Assembly: GCA_903839715.1 (NCBI GenBank)
Contig: CAIMDH010000138.1
Location: 1 to 25,082 of the forward strand
DNA: 25,082 nucleotides
Direction: 5' to 3'
From: an uncultured bacterium
GTDB taxonomy: Bacteria > Patescibacteriota > Minisyncoccia > Phycocordibacterales > UBA918
Below are positions 14,842 to 23,266 of this stretch, one piece after another (the stretch's first letter is position 1; each line of letters opens with the position of its first letter). Made by a program: the position numbers and the translations under genes. The notes under the pieces are model-generated. The model was not told the origin of the DNA. It did not search any database and was given only the letters and a program-made list of their open reading frames with translations.

Positions 14842-14958
14842 TTAATGTTGGCGCCTACCTACTCTTCCCCTTACGGAGTACCATCGGCGATGAGAGACTT
14901 AACTTCCGAGTTCGGAATGAGATCGGGTGTACCCCTCTCGCTAAAGCACCAACATTAA
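14842..14958 (-). rRNA. rrf: 5S rRNA (ends approximate)
   Basis: Reverse complement has CACCCGATCTCATTCCGAACTCGGAAGTTAAG and GATGGTAC; termini pair TTAATGTTGGTGC / GCGCCAACATTAA. Confidence 0.97.
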
Positions 14959-15168
14959 ATTTTCAATGACTATTTTTGTGAGTTATTTAGCGACATCGGG
15001 TAAATCTTACAGATTCTGTACACCTTGTAAACATAGTTTCCTTTCAGCGTTCACTCGGAAGTAAAAATTCATTTTTACTTCGCTCGTTCACTTGAAAGTC
15101 ATTATTTCTTTTCGTTTCCTCAAGAAATAATAGGCAAGGTCTTGCGAAGTGACATTGAGTCACTTCTC

Positions 15169-15205
15169 ACCCCTCTCGCTAAAGCACCAACATTAAATTT
15201 TCAAT
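15169..15205 (-). repeat. 37-bp exact duplicate of the 5S 5' end plus its upstream flank
   Basis: ACCCCTCTCGCTAAAGCACCAACATTAAATTTTCAAT at 14931-14967 and 15169-15205. Confidence 0.95.
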
Positions 15206-15271
15206 AACTTTTTGATACTTGTCATGCATTGCGTGAAATGATCCCATTTTCTTTATTATAAAGAAAATGGG

Positions 15272-15349
15272 TGGTCGGAGGGGTAAGATTTGAACTTACG
15301 ACATCTGAGCCTTTAGGCTCAGTGCTCTACCTAACTGAGCTACTCTCCG
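15272..15349 (-). ncRNA. tRNA-like element or pseudo-tRNA without a canonical anticodon loop
   Basis: CGGAGAG acceptor (one A-C mismatch), D arm GCTC/GAGC, T arm GTAAG-TTCAAAT-CTTAC, A73 and encoded CCA; the anticodon arm is an 18-nt perfect hairpin CTGAGCC-TAAA-GGCTCAG. Confidence 0.8.
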
Positions 15350-15396
15350 TTACCATTTCACGCGATACATGCGTTGCATATTCTATTATTTGTAGG

Positions 15397-15425: not shown

Positions 15426-15491
15426 TTGAACACAATTACACTTCAAAATTGTACAGCTGTTGTACTATCGCCTTGTAAGCACAGTACATTT

Positions 15492-15507
15492 GCACTGTTC
15501 CTTACAG
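15492..15507 (-). repeat. 16-bp exact duplicate of the 23S 3' end / helix-1 extension
   Basis: GCACTGTTCCTTACAG at 15492-15507 and 15647-15662. Confidence 0.9.
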
Positions 15508-15772
15508 TTGAGTGACTTGAGAGTCATGTAAATAAAAGTTTTACTTTTATTTACATGACCGAATAAACGAGAACTGTATAAAGGTACTCAAATATTCTCA
15601 CTCAACTATAAGAAACTATTTAGCGCTCTCTGCATTGCAGAGATATGCACTGTTCCTTACAGGAAATACGCCCTATTAGTACACCTTGACTCCATACATT
15701 GCTGTACTTCCATCTAGTGCCTATCAACCTGATCATCTCTCAGGGGACTTAATGATTCCTAATCTTGGAGTT

Positions 15773-15805
<33 letters not shown>

Positions 15806-15884
15806 ATTCCGAACATAGCTACTCGGCGGTGCCACTGGCGTGACAGCCGATAGACCAGAGGTTCGTTCATTCCGGTCCTCTCGT

Positions 15885-16665
15885 CGTTTATTCCCCTCTT
15901 TCAAGGAGCACAGACTATATCTTCACCCGTCTACATGGATAGTAGTGAGGGTGATGGCATCTTACACATAGAAGCAGTCATTTTCTAAGAAATGATTCCT
16001 CTACCTATGCGTCCGCGCGTCTTTCAGCGCAAGTCGTTACGGGGTCAAACCCAATCGAAGTAGCAAAGTTTCTTTACTCAAAGTAGCGTGGCTTTTGTAG
16101 TTACAGCCTCTAATTAAAAAGACAAAATCTACTAAGCTTCGCAACTCATACTCACTCAGCTTGCTAATTGTTTTCGAACTCAAGATTGTACAAGCTTGCA
16201 ATAAAGCATCCGCTTGAACTGTTTTGAATCTGATAAAAGGTCGCAACTGAGTCAATACTTTTTGTACTGAAACAAAACCATTAATTCTTAGCTCGGTCAT
16301 CCCATCATTACGATTGGATAAGTATCCGATTTCTAAGATTTCACGCATCCACTTAAGTGGTTCTGCGTGGCAAGTATCTTGATAGAGACATATAGTTGCC
16401 ATAAATCTGACGCCACGACTAGTGTCGTTTCGTAGTTTTATCTGCAACATTATGCTTCCATCTCCATCAAGGAAACCTGCAATGTATGCTAAATCTGTTT
16501 TGGATCGACTTCCCACGGTATTATCATATCAACATTCCGGTCCTCAAGCGAGTTTAATGCACACTGGACCGTGGCGCATTAAATTCTAAAACCGAAAGTG
16601 ACGTAGACTTCACCGTTATAAGCCATGTTGTCATCAGAGATCTCTCTCTGAAGTAGCAAAAATTT
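15885..16665 (-). mobile_element. Group I intron (IA-like, 781 nt) inserted after U2656 (E. coli numbering) in the sarcin-ricin loop
   Basis: Removal restores CCTAGT|ACGAGAGGACC. The 5' exon ends in U paired to G in P1 (UAGU/GCUA) and the intron ends in G. P3 GAUGACA/UGCCAUC, P7 ACGACUU/UAGUCU with J8/7 GAAGAUA, P7.1/P7.2 stems and a GAAA-capped P9 are present. Confidence 0.92.
16037..16516 (-). CDS. Single-motif LAGLIDADG homing endonuclease (I-CreI-like) in the intron P6 region
   Basis: YIAGFLDGDGSI motif, 159 aa, GTG start; lies between the Q (AAUACCGUGG) and R/P7 elements, with the stop abutting P7. Confidence 0.93.
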   Translation of the reverse strand: MGSRSKTDLAYIAGFLDGDGSIMLQIKLRNDTSRGVRFMATICLYQDTCHAEPLKWMREILEIGYLSNRNDGMTELRINGFVSVQKVLTQLRPFIRFKTVQADALLQACTILSSKTISKLSEYELRSLVDFVFLIRGCNYKSHATLSKETLLLRLGLTP

Positions 16666-23191: not shown

Positions 23192-23262
23192 CGGGGTATA
23201 GCACAGTGGTAGTGTGCGTGCATGGGGTGCACGTGGCGGCGGTTCAATTCCGCCTATCCCGA
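23192..23262 (+). tRNA. tRNA-Pro(GGG), CCA not encoded
   Basis: Acceptor CGGGGTA/TATCCCG-A, D arm GCAC/GTGT, anticodon arm CGTGC-ATGGGGT-GCACG, T arm GGCGG-TTCAATT-CCGCC. Confidence 0.95.
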
Positions 23263-23266
23263 CAAT

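Follow-up and report, generated by a model that had tools for sequence, protein, structure and literature searches.

A non-decoding, tRNA-Pro-derived element in the 23S–5S rRNA spacer of a Patescibacteria genome

The mascRNA of MALAT1 is a tRNA look-alike that serves as a landmark for RNase P and RNase Z. Landmarks of the same kind, the t-elements of plant mitochondria, define the ends of neighbouring RNAs (PMC1920247), and a tRNA-like structure 5' of the 5S rRNA of Haloferax volcanii is cut by tRNase Z (Holzle et al. 2008, cited in PMC3296008). The latter, in the terms in which PMC3296008 presents it, is the closest described system to the element analysed here. In rRNA operons, tRNAs are released by processing of a single precursor (PMC5179076), and Lui et al. 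2021 (PMC8172020) report that a few CPR genomes have tRNA genes between 23S and 5S, with no mention of non-decoding ones. A pseudo-tRNA of Bacillus cereus, tRNA-Other, is retained without a role in translation (PMC3399842). The literature that we searched holds no description of anticodon-less tRNA-like elements in bacterial 23S–5S spacers. To our knowledge, rRNA maturation in CPR/Patescibacteria is essentially unstudied; these bacteria are without several of the ribonucleases that carry it out in model bacteria.

Here we describe such an element in a stretch of 25,082 nucleotides (the window), which is contig C138 of a metagenome-assembled genome, G000 (876 kb, 147 contigs, 97% complete). That the element is non-decoding, tRNA-Pro-derived and structurally constrained is a much firmer conclusion than the processing role that we propose for it, in which it would most likely be a built-in handle for RNA-cutting enzymes and not a working tRNA.

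Locus and anatomy of the element

The rRNA genes of the window lie on the minus strand, with the 23S gene running from 19693 downwards (Rfam). Colinearity with the close relative G010 places a 780-nt insertion in the 23S gene at 15885–16664 (minus strand), which is assigned as a group I intron. It sits directly ahead of the sarcin-ricin loop sequence, is missing from G010, where the 23S gene is uninterrupted, and carries a 159-aa LAGLIDADG open reading frame (16516–16037; Pfam, 31 bits) together with a weak group I intron signal. Because this intron interrupts the gene, the true 23S 3' end is near 15655, and the true 23S–5S spacer is therefore approximately 15655–14954, roughly 700 nt; the last ~260 positions of the LSU model (2656–2912) match 15910–15668. 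The features of the region are as follows.

14846–14953, minus strand: 5S rRNA gene (Rfam 5S, 75.1 bits)
15223–15240, minus strand: 3' arm of the bracket helix, containing CAUUUCACGC (inverted repeat, fold, covariation)
15243–15271, minus strand: AU-rich hairpin of 13–14 bp, beginning right after the CCA (inverted repeat I6, fold)
15272–15349, minus strand: tRNA-Pro-derived non-decoding element, 78 nt including the encoded CCA (15274–15272), with discriminator A at 15275 (ARAGORN, Rfam, fold, model R1)
15283–15299, minus strand: T arm GUAAG/UUCAAAU/CUUAC with G53, U54, U55, C56 and A58 (sequence; T loop fits TTCRANY)
15305–15322, minus strand: replacement of the anticodon arm, a 7-bp stem CUGAGCC/GGCUCAG with a UAAA loop at 15312–15315 (sequence, fold)
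15354–15371, minus strand: 5' arm of the bracket helix, containing GCGUGAAAUGG (inverted repeat I5, fold z = −9.2)
15655–15884, minus strand: 23S rRNA 3' exon (boundary at 15884 by colinearity with the intron-less G010; the exon end is the real spacer start)

The element starts about 305 nt after the 23S and ends 318 nt ahead of the real 5S. A 45-nt duplicate of the 5S start (15169–15213) lies between the element and the real 5S (14953–14846), and in the ancestral layout, measured to this duplicate, the distance is 78 nt. No terminator-like site was found between 23S and 5S of the window, and promoter-like matches in the spacer are at chance level, which together favour cotranscription of 23S, spacer and 5S. 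The hairpin after the CCA was considered as an intrinsic terminator and rejected, being AU-rich, without a U-run and not called as one. The element is a non-decoding tRNA-shaped fold between the 23S 3' exon and the 5S, inside a longer precursor.

The spacer appears to have been enlarged at both ends. On the 5S side (14931–15213, minus strand), a 45-nt stretch made up of the 5S leader and the first 23 nt of the 5S occurs twice, with 96% identity and at a distance of 238 nt, on either side of a hairpin-rich insert of ~193 nt; a like insert occupies the same 5S position in G004 (L013), a related piece is found in the spacer of G022 (L026), and the first ~40 nt of the insert, consisting of a GUGAGAAG hairpin and then CUUCGCAAGA, are repeated many times over in the genomes of the genus. 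On the 23S side, the hairpin directly after the 23S (15643–15662) is repeated 155 nt further on (15488–15507; 20 nt, 95% identical), and the piece bounded by the repeat includes a perfect 17-bp hairpin (15523–15559). G010 is without this ~155-nt piece, which suggests a second small insertion into this spacer. Elsewhere in the assembly, contig C72 (764–1296) holds a second 23S 3' end, 74% identical to that of the window, and a second 5S (92.6 bits), which would come either from a contaminant or from a second operon that has diverged strongly.

Outside the anticodon arm, the element is a complete tRNA body. The acceptor stem CGGAGAG/CCCUCCG forms seven pairs with one A6·C67 mismatch, begins with C1–G72 and is followed by A73 and CCA. 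U8 and A9 precede the D arm GCUC/AGUUAGGUA/GAGC, which is canonical with G18G19; the variable loop is AUGUC. The nucleotides of the elbow and core are present in the sequence (U8, A14, G18G19, G53-U54-U55-C56, A58 and the R15–Y48 pair). The Rfam tRNA model (RF00005) matches over its full length with 52.8 bits (E = 6.5e-9), and the family model R1 described below scores the element at 82.6 bits. Folded alone, the 78 nt form a cloverleaf of −26.7 kcal/mol (ViennaRNA), and the same cloverleaf appears when the surrounding 176 nt are folded, as helix, cloverleaf, hairpin and helix (z = −9.2). Directly after the CCA, two 14-nt arms (15243–15256 and 15258–15271) are 100% complementary.

The anticodon arm departs from this pattern. 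Its 18 nt, CUGAGCC-UAAA-GGCUCAG, form either seven base pairs closed by the tetraloop or five base pairs with an 8-nt loop, CCUAAAGG, which is non-canonical and has no U33; the 7-nt loop with U33 and a purine at position 37 is absent. ARAGORN returns 15272–15349 (minus strand) as 'tRNA-???' with a two-base 'anticodon'. The acceptor identity set of E. coli ProRS is C1–G72 and A73, and the anticodon identity bases of tRNA-Pro are G35 and G36. The element carries the former, in common with relatives whose spacer copy reads UGG or CGG, and its loop contains no NGG triplet and thus no G35 G36. Judged by this loop, the element is unable to decode. The original prediction had described the same anatomy, namely tRNA-grade acceptor, D and T arms with CCA and a Pro-like end, an 18-nt anticodon arm with a perfect 7-bp stem, UAAA and no U33 that should not decode, and a hairpin starting right after the CCA; all of this is borne out, the hairpin being longer than the 12 bp then given.

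Expanded 8-nt anticodon loops occur in some frameshift suppressors, and with its five-pair stem, intact body and CCA the element could be imagined as a decoding tRNA that reads quadruplets or shifts frame. We regard this as very improbable. The loop has no U33 and closes into two further C–G pairs, the Pro identity bases G35 and G36 are absent, and homologues carry loops of 4, 6 or 8 nt, or inserts of 30–65 nt, at this place.

It had also been argued that random decay would not zip an anticodon loop into perfect pairs while the elbow is kept. The comparison below upholds the first half of this, in that the element is not the random decay of one gene, whereas the zipped loop itself requires no special cause. 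The outer two positions of an unconstrained 8-nt loop pair by chance in ~14% of cases (arithmetic), and relatives have tetraloops, 6-nt loops, 8-nt loops and long inserts alike.

A family of spacer elements in the genus and the order

The stretch from the 23S end to the 5S was used to search 40 relatives, and the loci were scanned with ARAGORN and with R1, a covariance model derived from the initial 14 elements. Homologous tRNA-like elements, one to four per spacer, are present in at least 13 of the 18 complete 23S–5S spacers of the genus. Most share the Pro-like acceptor (C1–G72, A73) and ACCA, and their anticodon arms vary widely, as listed by genome.

G018: canonical Pro-UGG loop
G003: canonical Pro-CGG loop
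G010: 'CCA' loop on a Pro-like body
G007: 'GAA' loop
G014: 6-nt loop
G020: 5-bp stem with a GUCA tetraloop
G000 (the window): 7-bp stem with UAAA
G009 and G023: long replacement arms
G019: D loop of 65 nt (about 56 nt inserted)
G004 and G006: half-decayed copies, that of G004 being the 3' half only

No tRNA-like element was found in the spacers of G012, G021, G022 and G024, and G016 has at most a remnant. In those relatives whose spacers were read by eye, a hairpin was present at the place after the CCA too, with unrelated sequence. For a wider sample of the order, 5S coordinates were obtained from 150 further genomes and the 450 nt upstream of the 5S were taken for 100. Of these stretches, 25 carry tRNA or tRNA-like elements on the rRNA strand; in the other ~75% none lies within 450 nt of the 5S. 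The acceptor CGGGGUG...CACCCCG-ACCA is nearly the same in several elements from different families of the order, and the recurrence of this Pro-like lineage at the same place fits vertical descent.

A second type of spacer element has a Gln-like body (U1–A72, G73, CCA), with 'CCA' or 'ACU' in the anticodon position (L007:2008–2082 in G007 and L018:1144–1217 in G011), so the spacer modules derive from more than one tRNA type. An exact-pattern search of the genome contigs with the anticodon arm of the window's element gave no match. Five metagenome contigs (L175–L179) match it exactly over the D arm and the anticodon stem word, but beyond these run into another conserved sequence, and the 3' strand that would complete the acceptor lies ~200 nt away. 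They carry an unrelated odd tRNA-like, possibly an intron-bearing tRNA or a split tRNA of another lineage.

In the nearest relative, G010, the element differs at 22 of 78 positions, and the 3' part of the 23S is ~98% identical. A one-base error or a single recent pseudogene, either of which would have undone the original prediction, is thereby set aside, and the homologues with variable but paired apical stems for which it had called a survey of 23S–5S spacers do exist. Between G010 and G020 the stems are the same, the loop UUCCAAA is replaced by GUCA, and the C1·A72 mismatch becomes an A1–U72 pair. In a MAFFT alignment of 14 sequences, 93.4% of the cells in stems are paired, as compared with 40–49% when the partner strand is slid, with 59 double-sided changes, and none of 500 shuffles reached the observed pairing. 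With 48 sequences the values are 96.7% and 278 double-sided changes, against 40–50% for the slid controls; these statistics are not tree-aware, the 48-sequence alignment is one fitted to the model, and it mixes Pro-like and Gln-like origins. All four stems covary.

The loops behave differently from one another. Among the 48 spacer elements (alignment A3), 46 have all four D-stem pairs, 46 have at least six of seven acceptor pairs, and 41 have a TTCRANY T loop, whereas a canonical 7-nt anticodon loop with U33 and R37 is present in 12, a contrast that is partly one of ascertainment, since the search model gives credit for T arms and takes no account of anticodon loops. That the tRNA body is preserved next to a scrambled anticodon loop is hard to blame on recency, because the genus is deeply diverged: the protein gene adjacent to the operon is 69.6% identical in DNA between G000 and G010, and most of the spacer sequence of the genus is unalignable.

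Redundancy offers a reason why the anticodon could be lost. Native 72-nt tRNA-Pro genes without CCA were found elsewhere in each of the four relatives that were checked, UGG in G018, G003, G010 and G007, and GGG in G018 and G007. The window has a tRNA-Pro(GGG) of its own at 23192–23263, which is without CCA, as had been predicted. The spacer copy is probably a redundant paralogue that these genes make dispensable. In contrast to the native genes, the spacer elements tend to encode CCA: of the 21 elements whose position 1 is C, 16 have it (about 76%), as compared with ~5 of 66 native tRNAs (about 8%; G000, G018, G003 and G010). A CCA-adding enzyme is present in G000.

We note that, of the 17 CCA-encoding tRNA genes of the G000 assembly, 14 cluster on contigs C81, C93, C112, C113 and C147. 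Many have unusual first pairs (U1, A1, C1), some anticodons occur more than once, and a tmRNA is called on C93; the 25 tRNAs of G000 without encoded CCA mostly begin with G. A phage or mobile tRNA array may explain these clusters, as may foreign DNA in the bin.

Dispensability also suits a neutral account, in which a redundant spacer tRNA-Pro is decaying without function and its tRNA shape is the part not yet eroded. The element is optional and patchy in genus and order, some copies have decayed (the 3' half in G004, remnants in G006 and G016, weak extra copies in G003 and G007), and the search method prefers copies that are still tRNA-like. In so diverged a genus, however, a relic should have stems that evolve like their flanks with no compensatory bias, and this is not what the elements do: four helices have kept their pairing across 59 to 278 double-sided changes, the invariant bases of the T and D loops have survived whereas the anticodon loop, equally small, is scrambled, and CCA is kept in Pro-like copies where native tRNA genes are without it. 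We consider neutral decay rather unlikely, and favour a tRNA body held by selection.

The bracket helix, the enzymes and a possible pathway

The element and its hairpin form a module at the apex of a conserved helix of ~20 bp, here called the bracket helix. In 15 of 18 spacers of the genus, a pair of 20-nt arms forms 17–20 pairs with a GUGAAAUGG-type core, and compensatory changes occur at many of its columns. In relatives, the 3' arm ends 26–47 nt ahead of the 5S start; in G000 and G004 the added insertion with the duplicated 5S start brings the distance to 271 and 277 nt, respectively. The helix encloses from 17 nt (G012, with no tRNA-like) to 420 nt (G003, with four elements), so that it is the helix that stays constant, with the tRNA-like as an optional passenger at its apex. 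A perfect duplex of ~20 bp is a typical RNase III substrate, and the bracket helix, which was absent from the original prediction, is likely an RNase III site. PMC6582327 describes a general role for RNase III in pre-rRNA.

So variable an apex raises the possibility of a mobile cassette or integration scar, in which modules are inserted or exchanged and the tRNA-likes are att-type duplicates that elements targeting tRNA ends have left behind. One to four tRNA-likes occur within the 17–420 nt, some as 3' halves only (G003, G004); their bodies have at least two tRNA origins, Pro-like and Gln-like; and small insertion elements have entered the same spacer twice. A contig from a related strain (X24) joins the 5S to 15386 and upward, with 275 unrelated letters in place of 14968–15385; it shows a relative with a different module, and nothing more. 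We nevertheless find a mobile origin quite improbable. The element is present as a single copy in G000, there is no integrase nearby, and the Pro-like acceptor lineage keeps its place in several families, as vertical descent would have it. Between G000 and G010 the bracket arms are identical at 18 of 20 positions and the element is 71% identical, which matches the overall divergence of the genomes; a cassette swap between the two was rejected as unnecessary, given the 69.6% identity of the neighbouring gene.

The enzymes encoded by G000 narrow the choice of how such a module might be read. The genome has a type A RNase P RNA gene (contig C23, 1042–1411; 106 bits). In RNAs of this type, two G of loop L15 pair with the CCA at the 3' end of the precursor, and both G are retained in G000. 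RNase III is encoded (247 bits), and RNase J gives a partial hit at a contig end. RNase E/G and M5 were not found in this 97%-complete assembly. The RNase P protein, which is short and may be divergent, was not detected in G000. No RNase Z was found in G000, and nothing above 33 bits in 40 relatives (cut-off 293). An encoded CCA blocks RNase Z as an anti-determinant. The element had been predicted to be an RNase P/RNase Z punctuation mark; the RNase P part of this is credible, with the RNA gene and its L15 GG in place, whereas RNase Z, for which no gene was found, was rejected as the 3' processing enzyme. In all, none of 41 genomes of the order gave an RNase Z match above 33 bits, though most native tRNA genes are without CCA.

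The further claim, that the mark separates 23S from 5S, has to be modified, as the element is optional and abuts neither mature rRNA end. At ~305 nt past the 23S and 78 nt (now 318 nt) before the 5S, it could not alone create a mature end. In addition, most of the leader that RNase P would cut is taken up by pairing in the bracket helix, which in the predicted fold reaches to within 2 nt of the cut site, so that RNase P would possibly be hindered until RNase III has acted. Cleavage of the bracket helix by RNase III alone could separate 23S and 5S, in which case the tRNA-like would be a passenger.

With these constraints, we propose that the element is a tRNA-Pro-derived, structure-selected cis module for processing and folding of the pre-rRNA, with RNase P and RNase III as the likely enzymes, and rate this explanation slightly better than an even bet. 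The ancestor would have been a tRNA-Pro gene embedded in the 23S–5S spacer of an rRNA operon in the Parcubacteria lineage. With decoding provided by separate tRNA-Pro genes, the spacer copy would have lost its anticodon loop, which in G000 closed into the 7-bp stem with the UAAA tetraloop, while selection would have kept the acceptor stem, the D arm, a helix in the anticodon position, the T arm and the encoded ACCA. The module would have sat at the apex of the ~20-bp helix, ~30 nt upstream of the 5S in the ancestral layout. RNase P would cut at the 5' end of the element, between 15350 and 15349, aided by the encoded CCA, and RNase III would cut the bracket helix; both cuts together would separate the 23S and 5S precursors and provide entry points for exonucleases such as RNase J. 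Such a route would matter in a genome without detectable RNase E/G, M5 or Z. We infer every cleavage step, and the benefit to rRNA maturation, from anatomy, homology, structural conservation, position and the content of enzyme genes; because of this, and because the element defines no mature end and is optional, the processing role is given about an even chance. In public RNA data (shares of at most 0.21, all contigs), coverage is limited to the conserved 3' part of the 23S and to the 5S, and comes from many organisms.

More broadly, and as a tentative suggestion, the CCA-bearing tRNA-shaped modules may be dedicated RNase P entry sites of an undescribed pathway of 23S/5S maturation in the order. 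RNase III would cut the bracket and RNase J would trim, the pathway would replace the routes based on RNase E or M5 that model bacteria use, and the CCA would be kept for recognition by the ribozyme and not for aminoacylation.

One feature of the family is not accounted for by RNase P, which requires only an acceptor/T minihelix: the conserved element is a full L-shape, including a helix in the anticodon position. This would suit a product that acts in trans, a stable, CCA-ended RNA of ~75 nt released as a decoy for, or regulator of, tRNA-binding factors, by analogy with B. cereus tRNA-Other or mascRNA. The encoded CCA would give it a mature-looking 3' end, and non-translating pseudo-tRNAs with cellular effects have a precedent (PMC3399842). 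We judge a released RNA improbable, as a 13-bp hairpin abuts the CCA with no detected RNase Z to free the end, the anticodon arm, which would be the likeliest surface for specificity, is the least conserved part, and the element is optional.

The significance of the preferred cis role depends on RNase P. If read by it, the elements would be a bacterial counterpart of the archaeal and organellar tRNA mimics that act as processing marks, and their variation would be a natural experiment on which parts of a tRNA are needed by RNase P and its partners. Independently of function, annotation lists such elements as tRNAs and gives them odd or wrong anticodons ('Trp', 'Asp', 'Phe', 'undetermined'), which distorts tRNA inventories of CPR genomes and the inferences on the genetic code drawn from them.

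Comparison with known systems

What is new here is the Pro lineage of the elements, the contrast in encoded CCA, the enzyme inventory and the bracket helix. The ancestor was probably an rRNA-operon tRNA-Pro gene, of which G018 and G003 keep canonical-looking Pro-UGG and Pro-CGG copies. As with the tRNA genes of bacterial rRNA operons (E. coli tRNA-Ile, tRNA-Ala and tRNA-Glu between 16S and 23S), which PMC5179076 covers in general terms, a tRNA fold is co-transcribed with rRNA, and in those operons it is excised by RNase P. Those tRNAs are functional and usually lie between 16S and 23S or after the 5S, whereas the place of the G000 element is between 23S and 5S; it is without an anticodon loop, and its identity is one that native genes already provide. 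Like B. cereus tRNA-Other, it is bacterial, non-translating and retained; unlike the element, tRNA-Other flanks a genomic island instead of lying in an rRNA spacer, and its effect on gene expression is exerted in trans.

The organellar t-elements and mascRNA are organellar or eukaryotic, are cut at the 3' side by RNase Z and are often reduced to minihelices, as compared with the complete cloverleaf, encoded CCA and bacterial type A RNase P of G000. In t-elements the cut creates the mature end of a neighbouring RNA, which is not the case for the element described here.

The likeness to H. volcanii is the strongest, as far as PMC3296008 describes that system: both have a non-decoding tRNA-shaped fold in the rRNA precursor just upstream of the 5S. 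In H. volcanii the fold is read by a tRNA-processing endonuclease, and for the G000 element such a reading is what we propose. The archaeal cut by tRNase Z makes the mature 5' end of the 5S. G000, by contrast, is a bacterium without detectable RNase Z, in which the fold encodes a CCA that would deter this enzyme, lies 78 nt from the 5S in the ancestral layout, and is held inside a separate, conserved helix.
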